From contig CANJVG010000006.1 in the NCBI GenBank assembly GCA_947478005.1, positions 35 through 64,034 on the forward strand: 64,000 nt of DNA. The letters run 5' to 3'. Within the stretch, counting starts at the first letter, position 1; every line of letters begins with the position of its first letter. The notes beneath the pieces are model-generated. The model was not told where the DNA came from. It made no database searches and saw only the letters and a list, made by a program, of their open reading frames with translations. The DNA is from Bacteroidota bacterium (GTDB lineage Bacteria; Bacteroidota; Bacteroidia; Chitinophagales; LD1). The translations under genes were made by a program, and so were the position numbers. Positions 1,836-63,852 of this stretch are shown here, one piece after another.

Positions 1836-1863
1836 CTTCATAATGATACCTAAAAATAAATCA

Positions 1864-3681
1864 ATGAAGAAACATGTACTCCTTCTAATCGTGCTAAGCA
1901 TTTTTGCAGCCGATAATCTTTCCGCTCAACTTTCTGCCACTACCTCTTCCACTAACCCCAGTTGTGCCAATAATAATGGGGTAGCTACAGTAAACCCTGC
2001 GGGAGGCAATGCCTACACGTATAAGTGGAGCAACGGAGCTACCACCGCTTCTGCTACAGGTTTAGCGGCAGGAACCTATACCGTTACGGTTTATTCATCA
2101 GCGGGAACCGTTTGGGATACACTTTATCTCGAAACTTTTGATGCAACCCAAACTTGGACATTGAACATCTCTACCGGAACCAACGGTGCCGACCCTAATT
2201 TCTGGACTGTATCGGATGCAGAAGGTGGCGTTGCCCCTCCCGGTTGCGGTACAGCCAGCAACGGAAATAAGACGATGCACATTACTAGCGTTTTTAACTC
2301 TTCTGGTGGGGCTGCTTATGACGCAGGTGGCTTGTGTGGGTTTTATTTTTGTCCACAAACAAGCGCAGCTGCAGAGTCACCAAATATTGCCACTACCGGT
2401 GCTACCAATCTGGTGTTAAGCTACGATTTTATTGGTGGTGGCCAGGGGCTAACGGATAATGCATCAACGCTTTATAGTATTAATGGGGGTACTAATTTTA
2501 CTTCCATCGACCCTTCTCTAAAATCAGGAACTGCCGGTTGCGCTGGTCAAGGTAAATGGACCAAGCGTTCGCTTAACTTGCCGACAAACTGTAATAATTT
2601 AAACAACTTTAAACTGCGTTTTAATTGGGTGAATAATGATGACGGAGTAGGTACCGACCCATCTGTAGCCATTAATAATGTAATGATTCGCGATTCTTTG
2701 CCGGGTACTGCAGACTCTGTTGTAAAAACAGTTACGCTCACCTTGCCTGTAGGTCCTCACTTTGCAACCAATGCATTATCGGTAGCAAATCCAGGATGCA
2801 ATCAGTCAAACGGTTCCATCAATAATATGGGTGTAACTGGTGGTACTACTCCTTATTCGCTGGCATGGTCGCTGGGAGGTGTGCAGATTGGTACCTCTAA
2901 TTCTATTGCCAACCTAGGTGCAGGCACTTATACTTTTGAAGTAACCGATGGCAACGGTTGTGTTATTGACACAGCTTTTACCTTGGTACCCACAACAGCC
3001 GGTGGACCAACAGCGATTACAACCAATAAAGTAATTTTCTGCGCTTATGATACTGCAACTGTTTGTGTTACTAACACTACTAATATAGTTTCTTATGCCT
3101 GGAATTTGGGTGGTACAACCGCCTGTATTAAGGCAACTACTGCGGGCAACTACCGCGTAACTGTTACTGATAATAACGGTTGCACAGCAGTATCTAACCA
3201 GTTGACCATCTCTGTTTATCCGTTGCCTCCGGTTTCCATTTCAGTAAATGGCGACACGCTTACAGCCGTAGGCGCTGTATCCTACCAGTGGTATCGCAAT
3301 AATGTAATTATTCCCGGTGCGATTGACTCGATTTATAAAGCAGCAGCTCCCGGCTCTTATACCGTTAGAATTGGCGATTCCAATGGTTGTCAGGTGGTTT
3401 CAAACGCAGTGATTATTTCGGGTATAAATGATTTGAAAACTACACTTGATTTTGAGATTTATCCAAACCCAATCACATCCGGTAACTGGACATTGGCGGC
3501 TGCTAAAGAACTGATGGGCGCACAGGCTGAAATTGTAGATGTAAATGGAAGGCTGGTTTATAAAGCCGAAATTAATCAACTCAAGACAGAGATAAATACC
3601 GGTCAACTCTCGGATGGTATTTACTTTATTAAAATCAGCAGTGGCAAAACTACCGTAACCCGCAAGTTGATTAAACTATAA
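1864..3681 (+). CDS. T9SS-secreted protein with SprB/Ig-like Cys-containing repeats and a type A C-terminal sorting domain
   Basis: The signal peptide is MKKHVLLLIVLSIFAADNLSAQ. It has repeats of the form C..NG...V...GG..PY.Y.W and the C-terminus IYPNPITSG...GIYFIKI...KLIKL. Confidence 0.8.
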   Translation: MKKHVLLLIVLSIFAADNLSAQLSATTSSTNPSCANNNGVATVNPAGGNAYTYKWSNGATTASATGLAAGTYTVTVYSSAGTVWDTLYLETFDATQTWTLNISTGTNGADPNFWTVSDAEGGVAPPGCGTASNGNKTMHITSVFNSSGGAAYDAGGLCGFYFCPQTSAAAESPNIATTGATNLVLSYDFIGGGQGLTDNASTLYSINGGTNFTSIDPSLKSGTAGCAGQGKWTKRSLNLPTNCNNLNNFKLRFNWVNNDDGVGTDPSVAINNVMIRDSLPGTADSVVKTVTLTLPVGPHFATNALSVANPGCNQSNGSINNMGVTGGTTPYSLAWSLGGVQIGTSNSIANLGAGTYTFEVTDGNGCVIDTAFTLVPTTAGGPTAITTNKVIFCAYDTATVCVTNTTNIVSYAWNLGGTTACIKATTAGNYRVTVTDNNGCTAVSNQLTISVYPLPPVSISVNGDTLTAVGAVSYQWYRNNVIIPGAIDSIYKAAAPGSYTVRIGDSNGCQVVSNAVIISGINDLKTTLDFEIYPNPITSGNWTLAAAKELMGAQAEIVDVNGRLVYKAEINQLKTEINTGQLSDGIYFIKISSGKTTVTRKLIKL

Positions 3682-5778: not shown

Positions 5779-6471
5779 TTACTTTCTTACTGTCCGCTGT
5801 TCGATCCGCTTTTCATAATTACTACCTTGAAATATGCGTTGTACAAAAATACCCGGTGTATGGATTTCATCGGCATTCAAAGCACCTGCCGGCACCAACT
5901 CCTCCACTTCTGCAATTGTGATTTTGCCAGCCATGGCCATCAATGGATTGAAATTACGAGAAGTGCCTCTGAAAATCAAATTACCTGCCGTATCGCCTTT
6001 CCACGCTTTCACGATAGCAAAGTCCGATTGAAAGGCATGTTCCATCAAATATTCCTTGCCATCAAATTCACGCGTTTCTTTGCCTATTGCAATTTCAGTT
6101 CCAACTCCTGCCGGTGTAAAAAAGGCCGGAATACCATAACCTGCCATCATACACCGGGTAGCTAAAGTCCCCTGAGGTATCAAATCCACCTCCAGTTCAC
6201 CCGAAAGTAATTGCCGTTCAAACTCTGCATTCTCACCCACATAGCTCGAAATCATCTTCTTCACCTGCCGTGTTTTCAACATTAACCCTATGCCAAAGTC
6301 ATCCACCCCTGCATTATTCGAAATGCAGGTAAGTCCTTTCACCCCTTTCCGAATTAAAGCCGAAATGGAGTTTTCCGGAATACCACACAAGCCAAAACCT
6401 CCTAGCATAATCACTGCGTTGTCGGCAATATCTTTTACCGCTTCATCTGCCCCGGTTACAACTTTGTTCAT
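5779..6471 (-). CDS. scoA: 3-oxoacid CoA-transferase subunit A
   Basis: The full length resembles ScoA/AtoD (GGFGLCGIPE, SNNAG, ENAEFERQ...). Confidence 0.85.
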   Translation of the reverse strand: MNKVVTGADEAVKDIADNAVIMLGGFGLCGIPENSISALIRKGVKGLTCISNNAGVDDFGIGLMLKTRQVKKMISSYVGENAEFERQLLSGELEVDLIPQGTLATRCMMAGYGIPAFFTPAGVGTEIAIGKETREFDGKEYLMEHAFQSDFAIVKAWKGDTAGNLIFRGTSRNFNPLMAMAGKITIAEVEELVPAGALNADEIHTPGIFVQRIFQGSNYEKRIEQRTVRK

Positions 6472-6500: not shown

Positions 6501-8399
6501 TTAAAGACGAATTAATTTCTTAGTAATAGTCTGTTGTTTAGAGCTTACCTTCATCAGGTAAACGCCTTTAGCTGCTTCCAGCTCAATTGCCGTTTTCTGC
6601 GAAGTAATAATGGCTTTAAAAACCAAGCGACCATCAGCTTCAAAAACTTCCACAACACTTCCTATTAAATTCTCCCCAACGTTCAACTGCCAGCTACCGG
6701 CTGATAGAGGATTAGGATAAACAGTCACACCTTCGCTGGAGTTTAGTTTATCTATACTGGTAATTGTAATAGTCGTTGGATTTGACGTAGCGTGGCATCC
6801 GTTTGCATCTGTAACTTCAACTGTGTAATTTCCTGTAACCGTAGCCACATACAATGCTGAAGTGGCATTTGGAATAGGCGAATTGTTCAGATACCATTGA
6901 TATCCAGTTGCGTTATTCGAAGTAAGCGAATCACCATTGACGCTAATAGAAACTGAAGGCACCGGATAATAATTGAGGGGCAAATGGTTTGAAGTGGCTG
7001 TGCAATTTGCCTGGTCAGTAACGGTCACATAGTAGTTGCCGGCTTGTTTTGCAAAGATACAAGAGTCAGTGCCCCCTAAATTCCACAGATAGGAAACATA
7101 ACCTCCCGGAGCGCAAATCCTGGTACTGTCTCCTCCGCATAAAACAGTAGCTGCGGAACTGATAGTTACAGGCGTTAAACTGCTGGAAAGAATCTCTACA
7201 CTATCTACTGCACTGCAACCACCGCTTCCGGTCACCGTAACATGGTAAGTGCCTGCCGCCAAACCTCCAATCAAATTGTTCGTGCCTCCATTGCTCCAGG
7301 CATAACCATTTGCAGTACCATTCACAACGCTTACCCAAGCGCTACCATTACTATTTCCGCAGGTAGTATTGCTGGGCGTAATTGAAATAGAAAGGCTATT
7401 AACAGAAGTAACTGTTACAGAATCAATAGTAGTGCAAATACCTCCTCCATCAGTGGCAGTTACGTAATAGGTGCCGGCAGCGGACACAGTATCATTAGCT
7501 CCCGTTACACTGTTGCTCCAGGTATAAATTAAACCGGAAGTTGATGAGCTAGCCGTTAGAATTGAAGTTGCGTTAGAGCAGGTAATTTGTGCTGGAGTAT
7601 TAATACTAATAGAAGGAGAAACAAAAGGTTGGCAGTTATGATTTAAAGAAGCTATCCATGCCGCATTAGCTGCATTGTTAGGCAAGCCCGGAGTTTCATT
7701 GTTTAGAATGGCGCTGTCCACATAATTCGCAGCGTTGAATGGGTTATTGTCAACCATGTTTGCCATATAGATTACTTCGCCCGACTGCGACCCTGAGAAA
7801 AAAACATTCAACTTAGCAGAATCTCCGGTCCCTCCCCATCCTATAGCGTGATAAGGTATGGCATAATTAGCCGGGGAAACAGTATGAAAGGCGTCACCAC
7901 CGTTGGCCATTCCTAATATAACCCAGTTTCCTGTTGATGTATAAGTCGGACTGCCCAATGCATAAGAAACCATTGTCCCGGAACTGGCGGGAATGTTATT
8001 GTTCTTATCCAGTACTGCCGAGCTAATCGGCACAACATAAACACAGTTTCCGTTAACGTCATTGGTATCAACTCCTAATGCCGCAACAGCGGGGCTCATA
8101 TCCGCATCGTTATAAATAAGAATTAACGAGCCAATTTTAACACTGGCCCATTGAGCAATATTTGCAAACCGAACGTGCCCGCCTGCTATTCCGTTATTGC
8201 CGTGCCAACTGTTATTGTCATCAATTATCCATCCACGAAGGTCAACTGTGTTGGCGCCTCCGCAAACCGGAGTTCCTGTTACTAATAGCTCAACATATTC
8301 TTTTGTGCCTGTTCCTTGCGATAGCTCATTGATGATGAGTTGCGCCTGTGTAAACGAAAAAATAATTGATAACGAAAGTAGAAGATAAATTCTTTTCAT
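6501..8399 (-). CDS. Lamin-tail-domain (LTD) protein with SprB-like repeats and a T9SS type A sorting domain
   Basis: The N-terminus LIINELSQG...EYVELLV...VDLRGWII is LTD-like. The C-terminus is VYPNPLSAG...GVYLMKV...KLIRL. Confidence 0.75.
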   Translation of the reverse strand: MKRIYLLLSLSIIFSFTQAQLIINELSQGTGTKEYVELLVTGTPVCGGANTVDLRGWIIDDNNSWHGNNGIAGGHVRFANIAQWASVKIGSLILIYNDADMSPAVAALGVDTNDVNGNCVYVVPISSAVLDKNNNIPASSGTMVSYALGSPTYTSTGNWVILGMANGGDAFHTVSPANYAIPYHAIGWGGTGDSAKLNVFFSGSQSGEVIYMANMVDNNPFNAANYVDSAILNNETPGLPNNAANAAWIASLNHNCQPFVSPSISINTPAQITCSNATSILTASSSTSGLIYTWSNSVTGANDTVSAAGTYYVTATDGGGICTTIDSVTVTSVNSLSISITPSNTTCGNSNGSAWVSVVNGTANGYAWSNGGTNNLIGGLAAGTYHVTVTGSGGCSAVDSVEILSSSLTPVTISSAATVLCGGDSTRICAPGGYVSYLWNLGGTDSCIFAKQAGNYYVTVTDQANCTATSNHLPLNYYPVPSVSISVNGDSLTSNNATGYQWYLNNSPIPNATSALYVATVTGNYTVEVTDANGCHATSNPTTITITSIDKLNSSEGVTVYPNPLSAGSWQLNVGENLIGSVVEVFEADGRLVFKAIITSQKTAIELEAAKGVYLMKVSSKQQTITKKLIRL

Positions 8400-8529
8400 G
8401 CTTAATTTTTGAGGGCGCTAAAAAAGCGAATTATTTTATACCATCGCACATAAACTTACGTCCTTTTTAGCGCATTTATACCACCCTCGTCAGATAGATT
8501 TTGAAAGAATTAACCTTTCTATTTTTCTT

Positions 8530-8883
8530 TTGTTTAGAATTCATCTAAATTCGCACCGCGTGAGTGAAATACTAACAGAGGAACAAATTAAGACAGGCAT
8601 TATAGAAGTGCTGCGTACCGTATTCGATCCGGAGATACCCGTGAACATTTACGACCTCGGCCTGATTTATGAGATAAATGTCTTTCCTGATTTTAATGTA
8701 GAGGTCGTTATGACACTTACTTCGCCAAATTGCCCTGTGGCAGGAACTTTGCCGGGGGATGTAGAGCAAAAGGTAAAATCAGTCAATGGAGTAAACGAAG
8801 TAACAATGGAATTAGTTTTCGAACCGGCCTGGAATCAGGAAATGATGAGCGAAGAAGCGAAACTTGAGCTGGGTTTTATGTAA
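8530..8883 (+). CDS. DUF59/SufT-like Fe-S assembly protein
   Basis: The motif VFDPEIPVNIYDLGLIY...LTSPNCPV is present. The start is uncertain (TTG at 8530, or a GTG about 30 nt downstream). Confidence 0.75.
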   Translation: MFRIHLNSHRVSEILTEEQIKTGIIEVLRTVFDPEIPVNIYDLGLIYEINVFPDFNVEVVMTLTSPNCPVAGTLPGDVEQKVKSVNGVNEVTMELVFEPAWNQEMMSEEAKLELGFM

Positions 8884-8925
8884 GTAAATGAATTATTAAT
8901 CGTATAAAATTTAAAATCAAAAACC

Positions 8926-12951: not shown

Positions 12952-13704
12952 ATGTCTTTTAAATTTCTCTGTTTCTCGGTTCTTCTTTTTCTGGCGGTAG
13001 CGGTAAACGCACAACGCAATGGGCATGAAATAGACCCGCAGGATTATCAATATAAGCACGAGGCCTCGGGTGGTTTAAGAGTGCAAACCAATGGCGTTAC
13101 GCTGTATGCCCAATATGGTTGGATCAAGGATATTTACCGCACACGTTTGTTGCAAATAGATTACACCTACAATCTTAGTCTTACCGATAAAAAGCTCAAA
13201 GCAAAGAATCAAAACAGTCGCGATTATTTGTTTGGCGTCCAAAACAAGTTTCATGTCATTCGCCTTTCCTATGGGTTTATGCGGAATATTGCCGACAAGG
13301 CCAATCGCAATGGGGTGCGATTGAGTTTCGTTTTCTTTGGCGGCTTTTCACTGGGTTTGTTGAAGCCCTATTATCTTGATTTTAGAAACAACAGCGATGT
13401 TGGCCCACAACTTCGGCATGAGGGCTATTCGGCAGCCAATGCCGCCAATTTTTTAAATAATGATTCTATCGAGGGTGCTTCGCCCATAAGGTATGGACTG
13501 AATAAAATGCAGCCGGTGCCGGGCTTGAACCTGCGGGCGGGGTTAAACTTCGATTGGGGCACAAAGGATGCTATTGTAAAATCACTCGAGGCAGGGGTGG
13601 TGCTCGATGCTTATTATAAGCAACTGCCTTTGTTGGTCAATAACCACAACCGTTTCTATCAAATTGGTTTCTATCTGTCGTTCCACTTAGGAAAACGCTG
13701 GTAG
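12952..13704 (+). CDS. Hypothetical outer-membrane beta-barrel protein
   Basis: It has a signal peptide ending NAQ, alternating hydrophobic beta-strand patterns, and an aromatic-rich C-terminus. Confidence 0.45.
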   Translation: MSFKFLCFSVLLFLAVAVNAQRNGHEIDPQDYQYKHEASGGLRVQTNGVTLYAQYGWIKDIYRTRLLQIDYTYNLSLTDKKLKAKNQNSRDYLFGVQNKFHVIRLSYGFMRNIADKANRNGVRLSFVFFGGFSLGLLKPYYLDFRNNSDVGPQLRHEGYSAANAANFLNNDSIEGASPIRYGLNKMQPVPGLNLRAGLNFDWGTKDAIVKSLEAGVVLDAYYKQLPLLVNNHNRFYQIGFYLSFHLGKRW

Positions 13705-13975
13705 TTGGTCTGTTTTTTATGACTGATAGTTGGTTTTTAAAACCGCTATATTGTTTTCTTTATCCTTTATGGATGATTCTCCAACGGTATTCCCCTCAAC
13801 CACTTTCTTTGCTGAAATGCTGTGAAAGTTTCCTTCGTTACTGATGGTCTAACAGACGCAATCTTTACCTGCCATTCGCATTTTAAAAATTTGAATTAGG
13901 GATATTTGAATGGGAATGGTCGTTTTTATTGCAGAATCGAAACGTTTTAGAGGTGAATTGAAGGAGTTTACAGTT

Positions 13976-14206
13976 GAGAATAAGTATTCCTGAAACAGGA
14001 ATACTTATTCTCAACCCAGGAATAGTTATTCTCAGGATAGGAATAGTTATTCCTGTTTTAGAAATACTTATTCCTAAGTTAGGAGTACTTATTCTCGTTA
14101 CAGGAATAGATATTCTTGAAATAGGAATACTTATTCTCAACTCAGAAATAGTTATTCTCAGGATAGGAATAGTTATTCCTGTCTTAGGAATAACTATTCC
14201 TAAGTT
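13976..14206. repeat. Tandem array 1: 11 x 21 bp, consensus AGGAATA-NN-TATTCYY-N5
   Basis: Unit starts were indexed at 13976, 13997, 14018 ... 14186 with no phase drift. Three units are perfect 7-2-7 palindromes. Confidence 0.9.
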
Positions 14207-14506
14207 GTGTTGATGGCTTGCAAAGGCTTTACATTTACCTTCCTATGGTTGTAGCGAACGGTTGAAACATGGATGGCAGCGGCAGAAATAATAACTCCGA
14301 TGCACCGACTCTGGATGATTGCTATGCAAACAAGAAGGCGAATGTGCCAAACTAAAATCAGAACGCTCCGATTATCAGTTTCCGAATTTCAATGAATGGG
14401 TTTGTCCTTTGACCTCCTGTTCCCAAGAAACGGCTTTCTGTTTTTGTCTGACAGGGACTGCCTTTGAACACAGGCCATCTGCAACCATTCATCTCACATT
14501 TTAATC

Positions 14507-14514
14507 TACATTTG
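14507..14514 (+). promoter_or_regulatory. Candidate -7 box TACATTTG
   Basis: It matches TAnnTTTG and lies 25 nt upstream of the ATG at 14539. No clear -33 TTG is present. Confidence 0.3.
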
Positions 14515-14538
14515 TTACTCTATATAATTCCAATCTTC

Positions 14539-17500
14539 ATGATGAAAAGGTACCCGCTGATTTTTGCTTTTGTAATGGCGCTGTTTGTTTCGCTGAACGC
14601 CCAGGTGGTTATCAACGAATTTTCGGCTGCCAACAAAACAGACTATGCCGATGTAAGCGGTAATTATTACGATTGGATAGAGCTATATAACCCCACTGCT
14701 TCTGCCGTAAATATTGGCGGCTGGTTTTTGGCCGATAACCCCGGCAACTTGGTTAAATGGCCAATTCCGGCTGGCGTTACTATTCCGTCTCATGGCTTCA
14801 AAGTTTTTTTCTGTTCCAATTTAGATGGTCTGTTCAACGGACAATACCACACCAATTTCAAACTCACTCAATCCGATACTTCGGAAGTAATTATTCTTTC
14901 GAATGCCTCGGTAACTATTGTTGATTCCATCACTCTTTTCCCTAACCGGGTAGACCAGTCGCGCGGTAGAAACGCAGATGGTTCGTTGGTATGGGGCGTG
15001 TATCAAAATTCCACTCCTAATGCTACTAACAATGTGCAAACGGCTTACACCGATTATGTGCCCAAGGTGCAGTTCAGTTTACCCGCAGGGTTTTACACAG
15101 GCACGCAGTCGGTTTCGCTTAGTTGCCCAATGGCCAACACCAAGATTCGCTATACCACCAACGGTTCTAACCCAACCACTGCTTCAACGCTTTATACAGG
15201 ACCCATCAGCGTTTCCGCCAATACCGTTATTCGCGCAAGAGCCTATGACAATGCCGGTCTTTATGTCGGCAGTTTCACCGAAAACAATACCTACTTTATA
15301 AATGAAACGCATACCCTGCCCGTTTTGTCACTTGCATCTGACCAGTTCAATAATTTGTTTCAGAGCAACGTAAATTCCATTGTGGGCAGCATGGAATATT
15401 TCGGTACCAACGGCAGTCAGATTTTTGAAATAGAAAGTGAATATTCTCCGCATGGAAACGATTCCTGGGCCTATCCGCAAAAGGGGATGGATTTTAATGT
15501 AGAAGATGAATACGGCACCGGTAAAGACATAAACTATAAAATGTTTAGCACCACTCCGCGCCATCACTACAACTGGTTGATTTTGAAAGCGGCTGCGAGT
15601 GATAATTTCCCCGGCAATTTGCCCAATCCCGCAGCGCATATTCGTGATGCCTATGTGCAAACCCTGGCTGAAAAATTCAAGCTCAATGTTGATTTAAGAA
15701 GAATGGAACATTGTTTGCTCTTCATCAACGGTCAATACTGGGGCGTGTATGAAATTCGCGATAAGGTGGATAAGGATTATTTCGATTACTACTACAACCA
15801 AAGCGAGAAGTACGTTGACAATCTGAACTATTGGGGCAGCATGATTATTCGGCAAGGCAGCGATACCGCCTGGAACAATCTTTACAATTTTGTCATCAGC
15901 AATAACCTGGCTATTCCTGCCAATTACACTTTCGTTACCGATAGACTGAATGTGATGAGCATGATTGATGCCATTGCTATTGGACTTTATACAGTCGACA
16001 GCGATTGGCTGAATTGGAACACCGCCTGGTGGCGTGGGCGCAAGCAGCCAAACATACAAAAGTGGAAATACTGGTTGTGGGATGAAGACAATACCTTCGA
16101 TTTAGGAGAGGATTTTACCGGATGGGGTAACACCGGCAACACAGCTAATCCTTGCGATATAAATACAGCAAGTGGAGGAGGACCCGATTTCAGCAATCTG
16201 AATATTGGTCCCGCTATGGGGCATATTGTCATCTTCAATGCACTGATGCAGAACCCTGCCTTCAAGCAACTGTACATTAATCGTTTTGCCGATTTAATTA
16301 ACACTGCGTTCAGTTGCACCAACATGACCAATCACCTCGATACGATGATTGCACGCATTCAGCCCGAAATGCAACGGCAATGTACGCGTTGGAGCGGAAG
16401 CTACACCCAGTGGCAACAGAATGTGCAGTATCTGCGCAATCAAATCACCGGTCGATGTGCGTTTATTGGAGGTGCGATGGACACTTGCTATCATGTAACA
16501 GGACCTTATCCATTGGTGGTGAATACTTTTCCTGCAAACAGCGGTACTGTTACCGTGAATACGATTACCCCTACTGTTTATCCATGGTACTCGACCTATT
16601 TTGGCGGAGTTGATTTGGTTTTCAAAGCAAATGCCAATGTAGGCTATCAGTTCTCGCATTGGACGATTCAAAACCATACAATCACTCCGGGCATTGCTAA
16701 TGATAGTATATGGTTTAATCTGTTGAACACGGGTGATAGCCTCACGGCTGTTTTCATCCGTACCGATTCAGTTCACCTTACGGTGCTTACCAATCCCGTA
16801 GCTGCGGGCAATATTTCGGTGAATGGCATTATGCCTTCTTCTTATCCATATACTTTCACTTTTGCTGATAGCACGGTATTGACAATTACAGAAACAGCGA
16901 ATACCGGATTTATCTTTAATAACTGGACTATTCTTCATCATGTACTCCTGCCAAATAATAATGCTCAGAATGTGGGCTTCATGATTTTGGATAATGATAC
17001 CCTCACCGCAAATTACACTGTGATTCCTGATAGTGCGAACCTAACGGTAATGGCTAATATTCCTGCTGCGGGAACTGTCACTGTGAATTCCAGTGTTGTA
17101 TCTGTTTATCCTACAGTTCTACGTTATCAAGGCGGAACTCTCCTGAATATTTCTGTTACTCCAAATATTGGTTACAATTTCGTAAACTGGACGTTGAATC
17201 ATCATGTTATAAATCCGAACAACACGGCCATCAACGGCACTTTCACCATCAATCAGGATGATACGCTCACAGCAGTTTTTGCCGCCATTCCGGATAGTGT
17301 TGATTTAACCGTGTTGGAGAATATTTCCGGTGCTGGTTTTGTAGCGGTTAATTCAGCATTTATATCGGCTTACCCTACAGTGTTGCGTTTTGAATCAGGA
17401 ATCTTGCTAAATATTTCTGCCACTCCGAATATCGGATATAACTTTGTGAATTGGACATTGAACCACCATGTCGTAAGTCCGAACAACAACGCCATTACCG

Positions 17501-19221
17501 GTACATTTACGATTACCCAAGATGATACACTCACGGCTAATTATTCGGTTATTCCTGACAGTGCTGATTTAACGGTGATGGCAAACATTCCTGCCGGTGG
17601 TAGCGTTACGGTAAACGGAAATGTAGTTACTACCTATCCTACTACAAACCGATACGCGAGTGCTACGCTGTTGAATTTGTCTGCTACGCCTAATGTGGGT
17701 TATAACTTTGTGAATTGGAGCTTAAATCACCATGTTGTTAATCCGAATAACAACGCCATCAGCGGTTCGTTTACGATTAGCCAGATAGATACACTCACGG
17801 CTAATTTTGCGCTGGTGCCTGACAGCGCCAATCTGGTGGTGGTGGCCAATATTCCTGCCGGTGGCAGTGTCAATCTTAACGCGAATATCATCTCCACATA
17901 TCCTACACTCATTCATCAGGCAACCGGATTGCTGATGAACATTACGGCTCTGCCGAATACAGGTTATAGCTTTGTAAACTGGTCAATTGCTCATCACACC
18001 ATCAATCCGAACACGAATGCTTCCACCGCTTCATTCACTTTCACACAAAGTGATACGCTGTTTGTGAACTTTCAGGCAAACGTGGCCAATCACAATGTGG
18101 TTGTTCAGGCTCTTCCCGCTAACGGTGGAGATGTAACTGTGAACGGCACTTTGTATGCTCATCCGAATTATCCCTACGCCTTGAGTGTGGCAGATGGAAG
18201 TGTTTTAAACGTTGGTGCTACTGCAAGCAATGGTTTTCAGTTTACCGGATGGCATGTGGTCTATGCTGCTGCTTTACCATCAGCTACTGCCAACCCCATG
18301 AGTTGCACGATTACTCAGAGTGATACTATCTACGCTCAGTTTGCCCAGATTCCTGTGCCTGATTCATTTAATATTACCGTGCAGGCAGTTCCTGCCACAG
18401 GCGGAGATGTTTCGGTGAATGGAGTTTCATATCCAAGCCCGGGTTATCCTTATACGCTTCGCGTAGAAACAGGAACACAATTAACCGTGAACGAAACTCC
18501 GAATCCTACTTATCACTTTATTAACTGGCAGTTGTTGCATCATAGTCCTATCCCGAATGCCACTGCTCTTCCTATGAGTTTCACGGTGGTTCAGGACGAT
18601 ACTATTTATGCTTATTACACACAGGATTCAATTGCTATTTGGGTAGATGTTTGGGCTGGGGGACAGCATAATCCTTTTGCGGGTAATGTAAAGGTGGCCG
18701 GTGTTACTCCGGTTTCTTATCCTGCCATTTTCAAGTTTACCGATGGAACCAACATTGACTTTGAAGCAACGGGCAAAACCCTCACCACGCTTAATCATAC
18801 CTACAACTATGTGTTCGACCATTACGATTTCATTTATCACACACCGTCTCCCGATAGCCTGACCTCGGTGGTGTTTATTACTGCACAAAAATCGGATACT
18901 GTGTTTGTCTGGTTTAAAGATGAAGTAATCAACAACGATACTGCACTGCATGTAATTTTCCCATCGGGCTTTTCACCGGATAATAATGGCGTGAATGATG
19001 AGTTCCGTGCCATCACGAATGAAACACTCGACCCTTTCAATATGAAGATTTACAATCGTTGGGGACAACTGGTTTTCGAATCGCACAACGTTAGTCGTGG
19101 TTGGAATGGGGAATTTGAGAACAAGAAATGCGATATTGGTATCTATGCTTACACTGTAGTAGCAAAACGCCTGAATGGGGAGGAGATACTGAAGAAGGGA
19201 ACCATTACCCTAGTTCGATAA
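14539..19221 (+). CDS. Giant secreted protein: LTD + chitobiase-C-like domain + CotH kinase-family domain + about 10 divergent InlB B-repeats + T9SS type B (gliding-motility-associated) C-terminal domain
   Basis: It has a signal peptide MMKRYPLIF...NAQ, the LTD motif VVINEF...WIELYN...IGGWFL, the CotH-like region RDAYVQTLAEKF...INGQYWGVYEIRDKVDKDYF, about 92-aa repeats (...GY.F.NW......P.N......FT...DTLTA.F), and the C-terminus FSPDNNGVNDEF...IYNRWGQLVFES...GWNG. Confidence 0.8.
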   Translation: MMKRYPLIFAFVMALFVSLNAQVVINEFSAANKTDYADVSGNYYDWIELYNPTASAVNIGGWFLADNPGNLVKWPIPAGVTIPSHGFKVFFCSNLDGLFNGQYHTNFKLTQSDTSEVIILSNASVTIVDSITLFPNRVDQSRGRNADGSLVWGVYQNSTPNATNNVQTAYTDYVPKVQFSLPAGFYTGTQSVSLSCPMANTKIRYTTNGSNPTTASTLYTGPISVSANTVIRARAYDNAGLYVGSFTENNTYFINETHTLPVLSLASDQFNNLFQSNVNSIVGSMEYFGTNGSQIFEIESEYSPHGNDSWAYPQKGMDFNVEDEYGTGKDINYKMFSTTPRHHYNWLILKAAASDNFPGNLPNPAAHIRDAYVQTLAEKFKLNVDLRRMEHCLLFINGQYWGVYEIRDKVDKDYFDYYYNQSEKYVDNLNYWGSMIIRQGSDTAWNNLYNFVISNNLAIPANYTFVTDRLNVMSMIDAIAIGLYTVDSDWLNWNTAWWRGRKQPNIQKWKYWLWDEDNTFDLGEDFTGWGNTGNTANPCDINTASGGGPDFSNLNIGPAMGHIVIFNALMQNPAFKQLYINRFADLINTAFSCTNMTNHLDTMIARIQPEMQRQCTRWSGSYTQWQQNVQYLRNQITGRCAFIGGAMDTCYHVTGPYPLVVNTFPANSGTVTVNTITPTVYPWYSTYFGGVDLVFKANANVGYQFSHWTIQNHTITPGIANDSIWFNLLNTGDSLTAVFIRTDSVHLTVLTNPVAAGNISVNGIMPSSYPYTFTFADSTVLTITETANTGFIFNNWTILHHVLLPNNNAQNVGFMILDNDTLTANYTVIPDSANLTVMANIPAAGTVTVNSSVVSVYPTVLRYQGGTLLNISVTPNIGYNFVNWTLNHHVINPNNTAINGTFTINQDDTLTAVFAAIPDSVDLTVLENISGAGFVAVNSAFISAYPTVLRFESGILLNISATPNIGYNFVNWTLNHHVVSPNNNAITGTFTITQDDTLTANYSVIPDSADLTVMANIPAGGSVTVNGNVVTTYPTTNRYASATLLNLSATPNVGYNFVNWSLNHHVVNPNNNAISGSFTISQIDTLTANFALVPDSANLVVVANIPAGGSVNLNANIISTYPTLIHQATGLLMNITALPNTGYSFVNWSIAHHTINPNTNASTASFTFTQSDTLFVNFQANVANHNVVVQALPANGGDVTVNGTLYAHPNYPYALSVADGSVLNVGATASNGFQFTGWHVVYAAALPSATANPMSCTITQSDTIYAQFAQIPVPDSFNITVQAVPATGGDVSVNGVSYPSPGYPYTLRVETGTQLTVNETPNPTYHFINWQLLHHSPIPNATALPMSFTVVQDDTIYAYYTQDSIAIWVDVWAGGQHNPFAGNVKVAGVTPVSYPAIFKFTDGTNIDFEATGKTLTTLNHTYNYVFDHYDFIYHTPSPDSLTSVVFITAQKSDTVFVWFKDEVINNDTALHVIFPSGFSPDNNGVNDEFRAITNETLDPFNMKIYNRWGQLVFESHNVSRGWNGEFENKKCDIGIYAYTVVAKRLNGEEILKKGTITLVR
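16500..18930 (+). repeat. Intragenic tandem repeats (about 276 bp units) encoding InlB-B-like domains
   Basis: Blocks recur with moderate nucleotide identity, for example CCAAATATTGGTTACAATTTCGTAAACTGGAC and CCGAATATCGGATATAACTTTGTGAATTGGAC. Confidence 0.7.
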
Positions 19222-24239: not shown

Positions 24240-24514
24240 AATTTGCTGTTTTAAATTTTTGTTTAGTTAAAAAATAATTACCGTTCCTTAGCTAAGAACG
24301 CCTGCTTTTGTGTAGCACCCCTTTGTTTGTTTTTTTAAGGATGTTTCCGTTTTTGCAGACGGGAAAATTATTCGGCAAACGCGAAAAAAAGTTTCAACTT
24401 TTTACTGAATACAAATAACTTTTGTTCAATACAAAAAATAACTTGAGTCACTCAAAAAGCAACTTGTAGACCACAAACTAAAGCAGAAGGAGAGATGAAT
24501 ATTTTGACCGATTT

Positions 24515-24800
24515 ATGCTTATAAATCGAAGATAACTAAGCATAAATCAACGAACTTTGCTTATAAAGCGAGGATTCTTAAGCATAAATCAATGAACCTT
24601 GCTTATAGATCGAAGATTTATAACTATAAATCGATGAACTATGCTTAAAGATGACCGAACTATGCTTATAAATCGAAGATTACTAAGCATAAATCAACGA
24701 ACCTCGCTTATAAATCGATGATTCTTAAACATAAATCAACGAACTATGAGTATAGATGGAGCCGTTATAACTATGAAACGAAGATTTATAAGCAATAGGC
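24515..24800. repeat. Tandem array 2: about 13 x 21 bp (42-bp super-period), core ATAAATCRAMGA
   Basis: The core was indexed at 24521, 24542, 24563 ... 24773 in exact +21 steps. TGCTTA and TAAGCA alternate between successive units. Confidence 0.85.
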
Positions 24801-26482: not shown

Positions 26483-26734
26483 ATGATTAGTTTAAACGGA
26501 TACGATTACAAGAATTGGCAAGACTACTTCAGGACAACATTTGAGACGACAAAAAAGTATAGCCGAGTTGAAGAAGGACTTCGTGGACAGACTATTATTG
26601 AAAAATATATTCCACTTGATGGGAGTGATAAAACAGAAATTAAAGTTGGCTATTTAGACGAGACGCTCATATATTGGAAATTTCAAAATCCTTTGACACA
26701 CCTGTTCTTCCAAGTCTTCCGGCTCTGCGGGTGA
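26483..26734 (+). CDS. Hypothetical small protein (island ORF 3) whose 3' end runs into a REP
   Basis: This is an 83-aa ORF. The last ~9 codons (FFQVFRLCG) are encoded by REP copy B, so the native C-terminus is probably lost. Confidence 0.35.
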   Translation: MISLNGYDYKNWQDYFRTTFETTKKYSRVEEGLRGQTIIEKYIPLDGSDKTEIKVGYLDETLIYWKFQNPLTHLFFQVFRLCG

Positions 26735-26773
26735 CTTGGAAGTTCCAATGGAAACAGGAAGTCTGTGACTTCC
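26707..26773 (+). repeat. REP copy B (downstream flank of RAYT)
   Basis: Hairpin 1 is CTTCCAAGTC...GACTTGGAAG. Hairpin 2 is GGAAGTC-tgt-GACTTCC. It ends 6 nt from the RAYT stop codon. Confidence 0.8.
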
Positions 26774-26779: not shown

Positions 26780-27343
26780 CTACGGATAATATACCTCATC
26801 TAAAATAGTTATAGGCAACAGTCCCTTTTCACCCGCATAATCCTTGGCACTGGAATAAACATATCGTTGAGCTGTATCTACTAATTTAGCTGTAACCGGG
26901 TTCTCGTGTATATATTCCACCTTTTGTTTCACAAACTTACTGCTCTCTAACGCTATTGGATGATTTTCCTGTTGCCAAAATTGATAGTTGGTATTGTTGC
27001 TGTTCTTTTTGCCAGCCGACTGAAATAACCAAAGCATCCAGTTGCGTCTGCTTTCTGTATTTAGCTTAATAGCTTCAATAATTTTGGAGGAGGTGAATTT
27101 TTTAAAGTCGCGCATAATATCGGAAAAGCTATCGGTGCCTTTTCTTGAAATAACCAAATGAATATGGTTGGGCATTATTACCCAGGCATGCAATACTAAT
27201 CCCTTCTTATCTATGCAATACTGCAAACTTTCAATTACAATGTCGCAGTAGATACTGCGGGTAAAAACATCTACCCATTCAACTACAGCACAGGTGGTAA
27301 AGTAAACGCCATCGGCATCATCAAATTTGTAAGCGAAGCCCAT
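26780..27343 (-). CDS. rayT: REP-associated tyrosine transposase (IS200/IS605 Y1 HUH superfamily)
   Basis: The 187-aa ORF has the HUH motif PNHIHLVISR and a C-terminal Tyr region RYVYSSAKDY. It is flanked by inverted REP hairpins. Confidence 0.8.
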   Translation of the reverse strand: MGFAYKFDDADGVYFTTCAVVEWVDVFTRSIYCDIVIESLQYCIDKKGLVLHAWVIMPNHIHLVISRKGTDSFSDIMRDFKKFTSSKIIEAIKLNTESRRNWMLWLFQSAGKKNSNNTNYQFWQQENHPIALESSKFVKQKVEYIHENPVTAKLVDTAQRYVYSSAKDYAGEKGLLPITILDEVYYP

Positions 27344-27395: not shown

Positions 27396-27462
27396 TGAAG
27401 TCGCAGACTTCAAAATTTCATTAAAACTTCCAAGTCACCCGCAGAGCCGGAAGACTTGGAAG
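27396..27462 (-). repeat. REP copy C (upstream flank of RAYT, inverted relative to B)
   Basis: The reverse complement carries CTTCCAAGTC-ttccggctctgcgggt-GACTTGGAAG and TGAAGTC-tgc-GACTTCA. Confidence 0.8.
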
Positions 27463-41720: not shown

Positions 41721-41865
41721 GCAACTGCTTTCTCCCTTTTTTGGGTTGGTTACCATTATGATAGATGAATTAGCCGAGCCGCACTTCAGCCCGACCATTT
41801 AGCCCATCAACCTGCTCATTACACCATTTAACCCCTCCCTTTTGCCCCTTACCCCTCTCGTTTTC

Positions 41866-42033
41866 GCGGTAAACCAAGCCGGTTTGCCCGTAAGTTGTAT
41901 CGGTTTAGCGGTAAACTATCTCGGTTTACGCGTAAACCAATCCGGTTTGCTCATAAACGGTCTCAGTTTAACGGTAAACTATGTCAGTATGACAGTAACC
42001 GAACCCGGTTTAACGGTAAATTCCATAAATATA
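41866..42033. repeat. Tandem array 3: 8 x 21 bp, GTAAAC-N7-GTTTAC-N2
   Basis: GTAAAC-like cores were indexed at 41869, 41890, 41911, 41932, 41953, 41974, 41995 and 42016. Confidence 0.85.
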
Positions 42034-43490: not shown

Positions 43491-43624
43491 GTATGGTTTG
43501 GAATTAAGTAGAGATGGAGAGCCCTATTCGCAATTTTCCGGTGTCAGTATTTACTAAGCTCCGGAACCATATTCAATTGCCTTGGTAAAACTGCTTATTT
43601 AACAGATAATTGGATGATTTTTAG

Positions 43625-43935
43625 TAACATCATTACGATAGCATCGATCATAACCATTTCACTTCGCAACATCATTACGATAGCATCGATCGTAACCATT
43701 TCACTTCGTAACATCATTACGATAGCATCGATTGTAACCATTTCACTTCGTAACATCATTACGATAGCATCGATCGTAACCATTTCACTTCGTAACATCA
43801 TTACGATAGCATCTATCGTAACCATTTCACTTCGTAACATCATTACGATAGCATCGATCGTAACCATTTCACTTCATAACATCATTATGATAGCATCGAT
43901 CGTAACCATTTCACGTCCTAACATCATCATTTCAG
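43625..43935. repeat. Tandem array 4: 7 full + 1 partial 42-bp units, TAACATCATTACGATAGCATCGATCGTAACCATTTCACTTCG
   Basis: Unit starts fall at 43625, 43667, 43709, 43751, 43793, 43835, 43877 and 43919. Most units carry only 1-2 mismatches, and the last full unit has about 4. Confidence 0.9.
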
Positions 43936-44219
43936 CATTTTACAAGGAAATTTCACTCCGAAACGTAAGGATCTTCGATAAATCAGTCCAATGTTCAGAA
44001 GCGTTTTTAAGGATTACAGAATATGGAAAGGCTTTAATTCTTTTGAATTTGGGGGAAATTCTGTACTAATTCACCATTTTTAGGCAGATTTTGTAATATA
44101 TCTACCTATTTGATAAGAAAGGAAGAATAAAAGATGGCGGAATGCATATTTGAATACAAACTGGTTCCGGCTGTTAAGACCGTTCAGTTCTGCAATCACT
44201 AATCGAATTGGCTTTCTTC

Positions 44220-61458: not shown

Positions 61459-63852
61459 TTACTGCTTCACAAGTTTCTTCGTCACTCTTCCGGTTTTGTT
61501 TTCAAGGGTGACGAAGTAAACGCCCGGAGATAGATTTCGGATGTCGAATTGCGGATTGCGCCCGCCCGACTGAACGTCATCAGTCGTTCGGGCGGGGATT
61601 TGAACAGCCGAATGCAATACTTCTCTTCCGGTGATGTCGGTAATCGTAAGATTGCTTCCAATCATGCTTTCATCAACACTTATTCGAACCGACTCAGTCG
61701 CAGGATTTGGATTCAATCCGAAATCCGCATTCTGAATTCCGAGATTGGCAACGCCTGTGGCAAGAGCGATTGTATTGCTCGTAGTATTCGTAACCACCGG
61801 ACTATTGAAATCGAAATAGATAAAGGCGGTGTTGTTGATGCTAGTGCCTATTGGCAGGTTGTCTTTGAGCTTGACTTTGTATTGCACATAGCCGCGGCTT
61901 AGTGGTTCGTTGGTGTTGCTGTCGGGGAGGTTGATGTTGGGGAAGTTGAAGCGGAGGTTGTTGCCTTTTAGCTGCACCATCGGTTGGTGGCTGTAGGCGA
62001 GTAGCTGAAAGCTGGCGGCATCTATATTACTATCGAGCGTATCGGTTACATAAATATGTTGCGCCTCGGCAGTGCCGGTGTTTTGGAAATGGATGGTGTA
62101 GGTAAGCCAATGGGTAGCGGTGTCTATATTACCTGCGGGGTAAACTTCTTTTTCATTAGGGTCCCAAGAACCAATTACGGTGAAGCAATGCGTAAGAATA
62201 TTATTGGCAGGGTTATTATCTCCGGCTATTGGGTTTACTATTAGGGTAAAACAAATCTGTGAACCCAACACAGCCGTAGTATCGGTAGCTACATTGATAT
62301 TAAAATCATGAAAGAAATTAACCGCACCAAAATCTGCAATGCTCCAGGTGATGGTATCGTTTACAATGCTTGTTGGTGTAAGTGCCCCGCTGGCAGCAGA
62401 AGCATAATGGGCTGCTCCGTTTATGATTAATTGAACACTGCCGCTGGTGCCTGCGGCACAGTGGGCACCATAAAAGTTGGTGGCATCGCCAGCGGAGACA
62501 TTTACTTTTCTGACGCGGCCCGGAACAAATCCACTATAAATACTTTGAGCAACTAAATCAAAACCCGGCTTGCAACGCAAACCAAAATTCATATCCGTAT
62601 CAAATGAATCGAGTGCAGTTATATTAGAAGTATAATAACCGCTATCGGGACAGGCAAATATGAAAGGCAGGTTGGTTGTATCAATCGAATAGGAATAGGT
62701 ACCTAAATCCGTATCGAAAGAATAGCTACCTGTTGGTATATTCTGTTGCTGTTGCAGGATTCCGTTTTGGTAGAGTTGCATTTTTACATTTAAGAAGGCA
62801 TTATTCTCTCCAGTATCATAGGAGCAATTGGCGTTACCATCTACATAAATGTTACCAGTGATATTCCAATAAACTGCGCAGCCATGAGTGTTGGAAACAT
62901 TACAGAGAGGAACAGTATTTAAGACCGGATAACTAGAAACATTGAATTGAGGATAATTAGGCAAACAGGTAATACCAGTGTTCCCGAAATTGAAATCCTT
63001 GATTTTTTTTAGCTGAGGCAAACAGAAAAGCTGTTGATTATTATGACAGTAGAAAACATTTAAAGAATCAGGCAATTCTGATAAAGAACTGAGTTGGTTG
63101 TAATAGCAATAAAGTTGTGTCAACGAATAAGGTAAGGCAGGTAAACTGCTTATTTGGTTATAAGAGCAATCAAGCCATGTTAACGAATTGGGCAAGACAG
63201 GTAAACTATTAAGCTGGTTGCTTTGGCAAACAAGCTGTGTCAACGAATGAGGTAAGGCAGGTAAAACGTTAAGTTGGTTGTGATTGCAAGTAAGACTCGT
63301 TAAAGAATTGGGTAAGGCTGGTAAACTTGTGAGTTGGTTGCTTTCGCAATATAGCGTAGTCAACGAATTAGGTAAGGTGGGCAAACTGGTGAGTGGGTTG
63401 TAAGAGCATCTAAGATATGTTAGCGAATTGGGTAAGGCAGGTAAACTGGTAAATTGGTTGTTATCGCACGAAAGTTGTCTCAAGAAATTGGGCAAGGTAG
63501 GTAAGCTGCTAAGTTGGCTGTTCCCGCACCAAAGCACAGTCAGCGAATTAGGCAAAGGAGGTAAAATGTTTAGTTGGTTGGCAACGCAAAAAAGCGTATC
63601 TAAATTATCAAAGTATTGTATGCCGGTGAGGTCAGTAATTTGTTGCCAGGAGCAGTCAATCCCACCTGCGCTTATTACGGCATTGCAAGTAGTATCCATA
63701 AAATTTCCATTCATACATGAGGAGAACCCATTTGTATTAAGCCATGCTCTAAAGTTTGCATCCGGAATACTCACCCACTGCGCTTTAGAGACAAAAGACA
63801 TTAGACACAAGACAGAGGACAATACAAGTGTTCTGAGGAGATTTCTTTGCAT
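61459..63852 (-). CDS. Leucine-rich-repeat protein (about 9-10 x 20-aa LPxLPxSLTxLxCxxNQLxS repeats) with a central DPNEK-containing beta-rich region and a T9SS type A sorting domain
   Basis: It has a signal peptide ending KAQ, LRRs over aa 76-275, and the C-terminus NPNPATES...GVYFVTL...KLVKQ. Confidence 0.8.
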   Translation of the reverse strand: MQRNLLRTLVLSSVLCLMSFVSKAQWVSIPDANFRAWLNTNGFSSCMNGNFMDTTCNAVISAGGIDCSWQQITDLTGIQYFDNLDTLFCVANQLNILPPLPNSLTVLWCGNSQLSSLPTLPNFLRQLSCDNNQFTSLPALPNSLTYLRCSYNPLTSLPTLPNSLTTLYCESNQLTSLPALPNSLTSLTCNHNQLNVLPALPHSLTQLVCQSNQLNSLPVLPNSLTWLDCSYNQISSLPALPYSLTQLYCYYNQLSSLSELPDSLNVFYCHNNQQLFCLPQLKKIKDFNFGNTGITCLPNYPQFNVSSYPVLNTVPLCNVSNTHGCAVYWNITGNIYVDGNANCSYDTGENNAFLNVKMQLYQNGILQQQQNIPTGSYSFDTDLGTYSYSIDTTNLPFIFACPDSGYYTSNITALDSFDTDMNFGLRCKPGFDLVAQSIYSGFVPGRVRKVNVSAGDATNFYGAHCAAGTSGSVQLIINGAAHYASAASGALTPTSIVNDTITWSIADFGAVNFFHDFNINVATDTTAVLGSQICFTLIVNPIAGDNNPANNILTHCFTVIGSWDPNEKEVYPAGNIDTATHWLTYTIHFQNTGTAEAQHIYVTDTLDSNIDAASFQLLAYSHQPMVQLKGNNLRFNFPNINLPDSNTNEPLSRGYVQYKVKLKDNLPIGTSINNTAFIYFDFNSPVVTNTTSNTIALATGVANLGIQNADFGLNPNPATESVRISVDESMIGSNLTITDITGREVLHSAVQIPARTTDDVQSGGRNPQFDIRNLSPGVYFVTLENKTGRVTKKLVKQ
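61561..61596. repeat. 36-nt GC-rich palindromic insert (CCCGCCCGA...TCGGGCGGG) in frame inside the sorting domain
   Basis: A perfect 9-bp outer stem plus an inner CTGA/TCAG pairing encodes PARTTDDVQSGG. It interrupts the heptamer tract 61533-61603. Confidence 0.8.
63027..63627 (-). repeat. Intragenic 60-bp tandem repeats encoding the LRRs
   Basis: Successive 60-nt sequence lines from 63121 to 63541 start with near-identical CAACGAATNRGGTAAGGC. Confidence 0.85.

Follow-up and report, generated by a model that had tools for sequence, protein, structure and literature searches.

A phased array of palindromic units upstream of a CotH gene

A 64,000-nucleotide stretch of DNA from a Bacteroidota bacterium (the window, which is nearly all of one 64-kb metagenome scaffold) carries, in an intergenic gap upstream of a gene for a 1560-aa secreted LTD-CotH protein, an array of eleven head-to-tail 21-bp units that we call array 1. 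Array 1 is one instance of a lineage-wide class of strictly two-turn-phased arrays, and the core of each array is private to it. We tentatively favor the explanation that array 1 is a homotypic array of sites, phased at two helical turns, for a putative dimeric DNA-binding protein, and that it grew by in-register duplication. The array had been described beforehand from the letters of the sequence alone (the original prediction), and the present analysis followed up that description.

The units start at 13976 + 21k, the last at 14186, with no phase slip, and Tandem Repeats Finder (TRF) reported a period of 21 bp with 10.7 copies together with higher-order periods of 42 and 63, which bears out the eleven phased 7-2-7 units originally placed at 13976-14206. 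The three units named as perfect 16-bp palindromes of the form AGGAATA NN TATTCCT (14039, 14165 and 14186) are indeed perfect. The remaining eight agree with the palindrome at 11-13 of 14 specified bases and so deviate by 1-3 nt rather than by the 1-2 nt first given, with the units at 14081 and 14144 each 3 nt off. The position of the array also stands as predicted, in a gap of 834 bp (13705-14538), with 332 bp measured between its end and the ATG at 14539, where about 330 bp had been stated. DNA before 13976 or after 14206 agrees with the unit at merely 2-5 of 14 bases. With up to two mismatches allowed, the core AGGAATANNTATTCCT has ten sites in the window, nine of them inside array 1, against a chance expectation from shuffles of 0.37 ± 0.60, and none of 100 shuffles reached ten.

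Pairwise identity between units is 93% at 12 core positions against 40% at the other nine, and the substitutions cluster by position (P = 0.0004). In the information profile, positions 1-7 and 10-14 are conserved and the central dinucleotide and positions 15-21 are free. This conservation is mirror-symmetric: GAATA and TATTC hardly vary, and each arm is looser in its two outer bases. Five units have the deviant arm TATTCTC and two have AGAAATA, in no case with compensation in the partner arm, and a search for compensatory stem changes found none among the units of array 1, all departures from the palindrome being one-sided. The departures thus indicate a constraint on the sequence and not just on pairing, which weakens the other possibility raised in the original prediction, that of generic cruciform or hairpin formers. 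No indel occurs between units, and the spacing equals exactly two helical turns. A constrained mirror-symmetric core, free spacers, the lack of compensation and the exact two-turn spacing together match the pattern expected of a row of dimer sites on one face of the helix.

Within the array, a four-unit block recurs 126 bp downstream (Table 1), which shows growth by in-register block duplication. Array 1 is also old enough for neutral sites to have randomized, since its core has stayed intact and its spacers are saturated, and this age is compatible with the approximately 80% amino acid identity of the nearest relatives.

A class of arrays restricted to multiples of 21 bp

With an alignment of the 250-aa protein encoded next to array 1, 80 related loci were retrieved from GTDB genomes, and three closer contigs were added. 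Some homologues of this protein bear the source names Chitinophagales or Bacteroidetes. Lag-autocorrelation of the window and all related loci (1.33 Mb, about 80 genomes) identified periodic regions only at 21, 42 and 63 bp, with two coding repeats as exceptions, and none of the non-coding periodic regions showed periods of 10/11 or 31/32. The same rule holds at finer scale within the window and in the TRF period histogram. Lengths of 21, 42 and 63 bp keep the helical phase, whereas 10/11 or 31/32 would drift, which would account for the exclusive use of the former.

Three further arrays lie in the window (arrays 2 to 4), and independent arrays were found in related Chitinophagales (Table 1). 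The arrays of the relatives (L010, L011, L015, L018 and L024) are built of 21- or 42-bp units that are all different, and no two occupy orthologous positions. Every array of the class combines conserved blocks with variable positions. Across 11 arrays (2,394 bp), 366 substitutions relative to consensus, corresponding to at least 191 events, were counted along with 0 net indels and 0 units out of register. Indels are expected at about one-tenth of the substitution rate, which would predict many shifts, yet none was seen, and this suggests that the unit length of 21n arrays is under constraint.

Dyad symmetry calculated from consensus units was significant only for arrays 3 and 4 and was absent in L015, L018 (1936) and L024. 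As other arrays of the class are non-palindromic, palindromy is a feature of array 1 and not a property of the class, and the defining feature of the class is the 21-bp period. Intrinsic curvature was likewise rejected as a unifying feature. By a wedge model, array 1 is predicted to be straight (its end-to-end/contour ratio is 0.95, the genomic mean being 0.92, and 88% of shuffled-unit tandems are less straight), and only some arrays (array 3, L011 and L015) are predicted to be curved, array 3 strongly so (0.45). A LytTR-type consensus ([TA][AC][CA]GTTN[AG][TG]) was dropped as well, the matches being partial and made by eye and a LytTR gene not being seen in the window.

Array 2 sits in a divergent gap between an fn3 gene (minus strand) and a 202-aa open reading frame (ORF; plus strand), and the neighbors opposite the fn3 gene are three small ORFs without a family match; a short 21-bp repeat of 2.2 copies lies just before it at 24431-24477. 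Array 3 is located about 210 bp upstream of a gene for a Por_Secre_tail protein, a cargo of the type IX secretion system (T9SS). The final partial unit of array 4 resembles the unit minus exactly 21 bp. The 151-aa ORF called over array 4 (43614-44069) had no Pfam or family match and is probably spurious. In four further samples array 3 is identical, and array 4 is identical or nearly so.

Genes beside the arrays encode proteins with CHU_C (array 1), Por_Secre_tail (array 3 and L018 20112), LRR-Por_Secre_tail (L011), DUF5686 (L018 1936) and CarboxypepD_reg (L015), and other arrays of the class flank sufB, asnB and rpoC. Two further long gaps of the window, 993-1842 and 8400-8925, lie upstream of T9SS cargo genes (1843-3681, plus strand; 6501-8399, minus strand) and carry no array, so the association of arrays with T9SS genes is not obligatory. 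No similarity was shared among the flanks of the four window arrays and the 80 related loci by blastn-short or permissive blastn.

Turnover of arrays between assemblies and organisms

An independent Logan assembly of another run (L002) contains the same 11 units, so array 1 is no artefact of assembly; three further runs gave shorter contigs that break off inside it. The window and L002 differ at three positions in 3,885 bp (14046, 14057 and 14146), all of them within array 1. These comprise one central N, one spacer base and one core base restored to consensus, and two of the three bring a unit to full identity with the paralogue lying 126 bp from it. Such differences could be gene conversion or repeat-induced assembly noise. 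All contigs of this species from Logan and ENA are close to identical and are hence silent on the copy-number dynamics of array 1.

A scan of JGI metagenomes for two consecutive units with the array-1 core identified a sister array in another organism, which we take to be a member of the Bacteroidota because a fused LpxC-FabZ gene adjoins it. There, the unit GAGGAATRGYYATTCTTTCAC fills the rpoB-rpoC spacer with nine copies in one contig (L101) and eight in another (L102), and degenerate older units lie at the 3' side. A third contig from the same 90%-identity RpoC cluster (L103) has an rpoB-rpoC spacer of 35 bp (5966-6000) and no array. The nine and eight units, together with the bare spacer, show that 21-bp arrays arise de novo and vary by whole units, and that they are tolerated inside an essential operon. 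Additional contigs (L098 1544-1610, Ga0307516_10059404; L097/L099/L100) carry two to four AGGAATA-NN-TATTC units at 21-bp spacing in repeat-rich DNA, and L098 has no ORF of at least 80 aa.

A proposed phased platform for a dimeric protein

On the explanation that we favor, each site of array 1 would be a dyad-symmetric pair of 5-7 bp half-sites, AGGAATA and TATTCCT, and the exact two-turn spacing would set all eleven sites on the same face of the DNA. A sequence-specific dimeric protein encoded elsewhere in the genome would fill the sites side by side, with one dimer per 21 bp, giving a cooperative nucleoprotein stretch of about 230 bp at a distance of 300-530 bp upstream from the promoter of the gene for the T9SS-secreted LTD-CotH protein. 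This stretch may be an upstream platform with a regulatory or architectural role, or it may titrate the protein as a sink, and the array would have grown by in-register duplication of one or several units. All three of the following are inferred: that a protein imposes the constraint, that its binding is cooperative and that the CotH promoter is its target.

The anatomy fits that of an operator array, with dyad-symmetric conserved half-sites, free central and flanking bases, and an integral helical spacing. Dimeric or two-domain regulators typically cover about two turns, as at OmpR F1-F3 and the tandem pho boxes of 20-22 bp. Further two-turn examples are AraC I1-I2 (21 bp), LytTR repeats (9 + 12 = 21 bp) and plasmid iterons (about 22 bp). 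The array of dimeric-protein sites in the original prediction is the best reading available, but its support is only indirect and comes from the anatomy (exact two-turn spacing, 93% against 40% identity), and no binder was identified.

Several observations weigh against the protein-site explanation. At the junctions between the 250-aa gene and the CotH gene in L010, L019 and L088/L089, the gap is about 100 bp and has neither array nor motif, even though gene order is kept, the CotH-type gene being next in L010 and L019, and L088/L089 standing at 81% identity. The only occurrence of the core AGGAATANNTATTCCT outside the array in the window is one two-mismatch site inside a nuo gene. In the Chitinophagales loci of the approximately 1.3-Mb set, eight matches with up to two mismatches were found, which is about the chance rate, and the other matches in that set lie in contigs that had been found with the motif itself. 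The window proteins that were scanned yielded no transcription-factor domain, and no candidate binder emerged. The array is 300 bp from the only recognizable promoter box, far for a classical bacterial activator or repressor, and rows of eleven tandem sites for a single regulator are, to our knowledge, uncommon in bacteria. All arrays of the class differ in sequence, so that many cognate proteins would be needed, and they occur in co-directional, divergent and convergent gaps (the last for array 4) as well as in the rpoB-rpoC spacer. The link between array 1 and the LTD-CotH gene is positional only.

As to the checks proposed with the original prediction, further motif sites were not present above chance in the window or in 1.27 Mb of relatives, and the regulator search among the scanned window proteins returned no transcription-factor domain. 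The comparison of unit number gave the same 11 units in L002 and an absent array in the relatives that share the gene order. In view of these array-free gaps of about 100 bp, array 1 is a lineage-specific acquisition and not a conserved control element of CotH genes.

A wider form of the same proposal, which we regard as possible but speculative, is that two-turn "private operator arrays" form a general class, as yet undescribed, in Chitinophagales and in some other Bacteroidota at least. Tens of such arrays per genome would each consist of about 6-14 units of exactly 21 (or 42) bp with a constrained bipartite core of its own, free spacers and a phase kept by selection. Each would be read by its cognate member of an expanded regulator family, with long cooperative filaments as the result, or else the arrays would be built by dedicated machinery with a 21-bp ruler, and array 1 would be the member adjacent to CotH.

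Alternative explanations

The main rival is a self-propagating or neutral minisatellite without a trans-acting partner, which we consider conceivable though doubtful. Array 1 would then be the outcome of slippage and in-register unequal recombination in tolerant intergenic DNA, effects on neighboring genes would be incidental, and the 21 bp would reflect a mutational or physical ruler of the lineage. Turnover and placement are explained in this way. Array 1 is species-specific and missing from relatives, it contains a higher-order block duplication at 126 bp, and the only three differences in 3,885 bp all fall within it, two of them making a unit equal to its paralogue in a manner that resembles gene conversion. 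The sister array in the rpoB-rpoC spacer has nine units in one sample and eight in another and is absent from a relative in the same RpoC cluster (35-bp spacer), class arrays are found in every intergenic type, each with a unique sequence, and the array-1 motif was found nowhere else. However, the minisatellite does not explain the contrast between core and spacer, the deficit of indels or the period rule. Neutral decay should strike all positions, yet identity is 93% in the core and 40% in the rest (P = 0.0004), and conversion tracts would homogenize spacers as well as cores. The 0 indels beside at least 191 substitution events in 11 arrays are unexpected at an indel ratio of about 1/10 (a ratio taken from general knowledge), and plain slippage gives no reason for a period that is exclusively 21, 42 or 63.

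Distinctly less probable is a contingency element with a variable number of tandem repeats (VNTR), in which a change in unit number would alter expression of the adjacent surface or secreted gene and produce heterogeneity in the population. Many class arrays are located upstream of T9SS cargo or outer-membrane-type genes, copy number is polymorphic between L101 and L102, and the BrickBuilt elements of Porphyromonas gingivalis also often flank genes with the C-terminal domain of the Por secretion system (PorSS-CTD) and carry promoter activity (PMC4596501). Against this, the copy number of array 1 is equal between independent assemblies, arrays 3 and 4 hardly differ, if at all, in four further samples, and a gain or loss of 21 bp preserves helical phase and barely alters a distance of 300 bp. 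There is no -7 box inside array 1, other arrays lie beside sufB, asnB and rpoC, and the proximity to surface genes is a raw count confounded by long intergenic regions.

An array of RNA or single-stranded DNA (ssDNA) hairpins, in the manner of repetitive extragenic palindromes (REPs) and bacterial interspersed mosaic elements (BIMEs), is slightly less probable again and in our view unlikely. Array 1 would act in the 3' region of the upstream gene or in a 5' leader of CotH, where stacked hairpins would stabilize, terminate or process the transcript, or it would form cruciforms. The predicted single-strand folds are very stable (RNA, -109 kcal/mol, z = -13.6; ssDNA, z = -10.1), perfect 20-bp and 17-bp stems lie at the ends of the array, and a similar array inside the rpoB-rpoC operon must be transcribed. 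The left-end palindrome at 13973-14015 is the first hairpin in both the RNA and the DNA fold predictions, and the right-end palindrome at 14164-14202 was flagged as terminator-like by a consensus scan, with only a weak T tract after it. The strong fold is a trivial consequence of repeating a palindrome, with no covariation behind it: no unit shows a compensatory change, and the deviations break pairing. A 7-2-7 stem cannot close a 2-nt loop, the arrays of L015, L018 1936 and L024 are wholly non-palindromic, and arrays also occur in divergent promoter gaps (array 2 and L011). For RNA there is no reason to expect a period of exactly 21 nt, Rfam gave no match, and the only recognizable promoter lies downstream of array 1.

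The remaining two alternatives are largely excluded. An element of mobile or extrachromosomal type, whether a minisatellite borne on a transposable element of the miniature inverted-repeat type (MITE) as in BrickBuilt, repeats of a REP and its REP-associated tyrosine transposase (RAYT), plasmid iterons or a sopC-like centromere, is very improbable. The 834-bp gap is an insertion relative to the approximately 100-bp gap of relatives, the tandem 16-bp 7-2-7 palindrome recalls sopC and the phased 21-22 bp units recall iterons (both from general knowledge), and a genuine RAYT gene lies 12.6 kb away. But the flanks of four arrays are unrelated, inverted repeats come only from the array's own units with no separate terminal ones, and the RAYT's own REP (CTTCCAAGTC..GACTTGGAAG, three copies) is unrelated. 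Rep, par and transposase domains were not found in the scanned neighboring proteins, the window is chromosomal, and neither the array nor its dimer pattern was matched in 72,556 plasmids, 50,697 phages and IMG/VR. The least credible alternative, a coding sequence for a heptad-repeat peptide in the ORFs through array 1 (13974-14213, plus strand; 13883-14140, minus strand), draws on 21 bp being seven codons and on both strands being open with an I/L/V/G/P-rich seven-residue repeat, but the variable positions form contiguous blocks, variation by codon position (13/19/19) shows no codon periodicity and no third-position excess, the ORF starts are TTG, the gene caller placed no gene over array 1, and the open frame is a by-product of a stop-free unit.

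Locus, promoter signals and neighboring features

The coordinates of array 1, of its surroundings and of the other arrays are collected in Table 1. The -7 box TACATTTG precedes the ATG by 24 bp and follows array 1 at a distance of 300 bp; it conforms to TAnnTTTG, the consensus of the -7 box of Bacteroidetes sigma-A promoters. A sigma-70 consensus scan returned nothing above shuffle expectation. No sigma-54 -24/-12 promoter was found between array 1 and the gene, and the idea of array 1 as a sigma-54 enhancer was rejected on that ground. Measured from the palindrome centers, the -7 box stands at 25x21+2 in the case of array 1 and at 14x21+0 in that of array 3, a measure that was not used, there being too few cases and too much freedom. 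Rfam 15 gave no match at gathering score in the whole window. The presence of nuo, thrA, ftsK and lolA shows that the window is chromosomal.

Among the periodic regions of the window, only two coding tandem repeats have a period other than a multiple of 21. One, at 63092-63521 within an ORF on the minus strand (61459-63852), consists of 60-bp LRR units of an LRR-DUF7619-Por_Secre_tail protein, and the other, at 17425-17982 in the CotH gene, has a 264-bp unit matching InlB B-repeat domains.

Table 1. Positions of array 1, its surroundings and the other 21n arrays. Coordinates refer to the window unless a contig is given.
Feature	Position	Strand	Description
Upstream gene	12952-13704	+	250-aa protein; no Pfam or NCBIfam match; anchor for fetching related loci
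Left flank of gap	13705-13975	no strand	Non-repetitive; dissimilar to flanks of other arrays
Array 1	13976-14206	no strand	Core AGGAATA-NN-TATTC(YY) and variable 5-bp spacer
Array 1, left end	13973-14015	no strand	Palindrome of 20-3-20, perfect; unit 1 inverts unit 2 exactly, together with flanking bases
Four-unit block	13997-14080	no strand	First copy of higher-order repeat
Four-unit block, second copy	14123-14206	no strand	126 bp downstream of first; 78/84 identical
Array 1, right end	14164-14202	no strand	Perfect 17-5-17 palindrome, units 10 and 11
Right flank of gap	14207-14538	no strand	Non-repetitive; between array 1 and gene start
-7 promoter box	14507-14514	+	TACATTTG; only Bacteroidetes-type -7 box in gap
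Downstream gene	14539-19221	+	1560-aa LTD / CotH / InlB-B-repeat / CHU_C (T9SS-sorted) protein
Array 2	24505-24794	no strand	21/42-bp units, ATGCTTATAAATCGA / TAAGCATAAATCAA alternating; also a 105/147-bp higher-order pattern
RAYT gene	26780-27343	-	REP-associated tyrosine transposase; 101.9 bits to NCBIfam NF047646 (cut-off 80)
Array 3	41859-42026	no strand	8 units of 21 bp, GGTTTAC-NN-GTAAACC; 7-2-7+5 geometry as array 1
Array 4	43624-43927	no strand	7.2 copies of a 42-bp unit, 95% identity; flanking genes convergent
Sister array	L101 3961-4156 (Ga0209641_10006465); L102 (Ga0209342_10030973)		Similar palindrome AGGAATRGYYATTCT
Array in related Chitinophagales	L010 9073-9271		Independent; own unit
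Array in related Chitinophagales	L011 9996-10273		Independent; own unit; divergent gap
Array in related Chitinophagales	L015 16543-16777		Independent; own unit
Array in related Chitinophagales	L018 1936-2150		Independent; own unit
Array in related Chitinophagales	L018 20112-20370		Independent; own unit
Array in related Chitinophagales	L024 14404-14530		Independent; own unit
Candidate binding probe for array 1			AGGAATAGTTATTCCT

Significance

Array 1 is notable mainly as a member of a lineage-wide class that deserves systematic survey. If the arrays are protein-binding platforms, they would represent an unusual bacterial regulatory architecture, in which about ten identical operators stand in strict phase far upstream of secreted or surface genes and are gained and lost at species level. 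The rule of the class (only 21, 42 or 63 bp, no indels, a private core) points to a physical ruler of two B-DNA turns per unit that shapes repeat evolution in the lineage. If the arrays are neutral, they would still be a clean natural example of constraint-shaped minisatellites and possible markers for strain typing. In either case, 21n arrays break short-read assemblies and spawn spurious ORF calls, such as the 151-aa "gene" on array 4, and their recognition would improve the annotation of Bacteroidota metagenome-assembled genomes.

Comparison with known systems

Array 1 shares single features with several known kinds of repeat. CRISPR arrays have repeats of about 21-48 bp and unique spacers of similar length; a CRISPR array was rejected for array 1, where variation is confined to 5 bp (+2), and the scanned proteins showed no Cas domain. 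ToxI-like RNAs of type III toxin-antitoxin systems consist of a tandem repeat of about 34-45 nt followed by a terminator and a small toxin gene, and this candidate was rejected as well, the unit here being 21 nt and the downstream gene encoding a 1560-aa secreted CotH protein 332 bp away.

With its 11 x 21 bp, array 1 has the makeup of a minisatellite or VNTR, defined as head-to-tail units of at least 10 bp in several copies. The Haemophilus hmw 7-bp and Neisseria nadA TAAA repeats are promoter-associated VNTR contingency loci, and the arrays of the present class resemble them in being tandem repeats upstream of surface genes, with a copy number that varies in at least one array (L101/L102). 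Promoter VNTRs, however, have units of 1-7 bp and act on promoter spacing or phase, whereas array 1 has units of 21 bp, is phase-neutral, lies far upstream and showed no variation in copy number.

Like the REPs and BIMEs of E. coli and Pseudomonas, array 1 consists of tandem extragenic palindromes in alternating orientation with two alternating spacer lengths, and arrays of this kind are tolerated in operons. REPs, however, are one sequence dispersed in many copies and associated with a RAYT, whereas the array-1 motif is confined to the array. REP/BIME was rejected on this ground and on the finding that the RAYT of the window has a different and unrelated REP. That RAYT gene is flanked by 73-nt inverted repeats, each with a 15-6-15 hairpin CTTCCAAGTC..GACTTGGAAG (26707-26742 and 27427-27462), and a third copy of its REP, unrelated to the 21-bp arrays, lies at 401-436.

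Plasmid iterons have units of 17-22 bp, spaced at about two turns, in which the cores are conserved and the spacers vary, and sopC of the F plasmid comprises 12 tandem units, each with a 7-2-7 16-bp palindrome bound by a dimeric helix-turn-helix protein. Unlike these elements, array 1 is chromosomal and is one of four unrelated arrays within 64 kb, and the sopC unit is 43 bp. Plasmid iterons were rejected in view of the neighbors (a 250-aa protein of unknown family and CotH), the chromosomal window and the lack of a plasmid match, and a centromere of sopC/parS type was rejected as no ParA/ParB domain was found in the Pfam-scanned window proteins.

No account of phased 21-bp arrays in Chitinophagales turned up in full-text literature searches. 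The nearest counterparts are two minisatellites of Porphyromonas gingivalis, BrickBuilt with units of 23 nt and PgRS/MITE464 with units of 41 nt (Klein et al. 2015, PMC4596501). They come from the same phylum and form intergenic tandem arrays with about two or four helical turns per unit, with conserved and non-conserved unit positions, and often beside T9SS-CTD genes. They are also strictly intergenic, reach about 23 units and are species-restricted (PMC4596501). BrickBuilt, however, is one family with 19 copies per genome, a shared leader and tail, IS5-like terminal inverted repeats and 0-6% indels, whereas each array described here has a private sequence, unrelated flanks, a period of exactly 21n and no indels. 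A test for MITE-type elements found no shared leader or tail among the four arrays or the 80 related loci, and no terminal inverted repeats outside the units.

For the protein-site explanation, the relevant comparison is with the OmpR sites F1-F2-F3 and C1-C3, the pho boxes, AraC I1-I2 and the LytTR 9+12 repeats, which resemble array 1 in having about 20-22 bp per dimer or two-domain monomer, neighboring sites on the same face and a conserved bipartite core whose blocks are separated by free bases. These known sites number two to four and stand directly at the promoter, whereas array 1 has 11 sites, lies 300 bp upstream and has a site not found elsewhere; membership in these regulons cannot be claimed. 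The OmpR, Pho, AraC and LytTR regulators belong to large paralogous families in which each member has its own core and the geometry is the same. Private operator arrays of the kind proposed above would be the bacterial counterpart of homotypic enhancer clusters or transcription-factor sponges.

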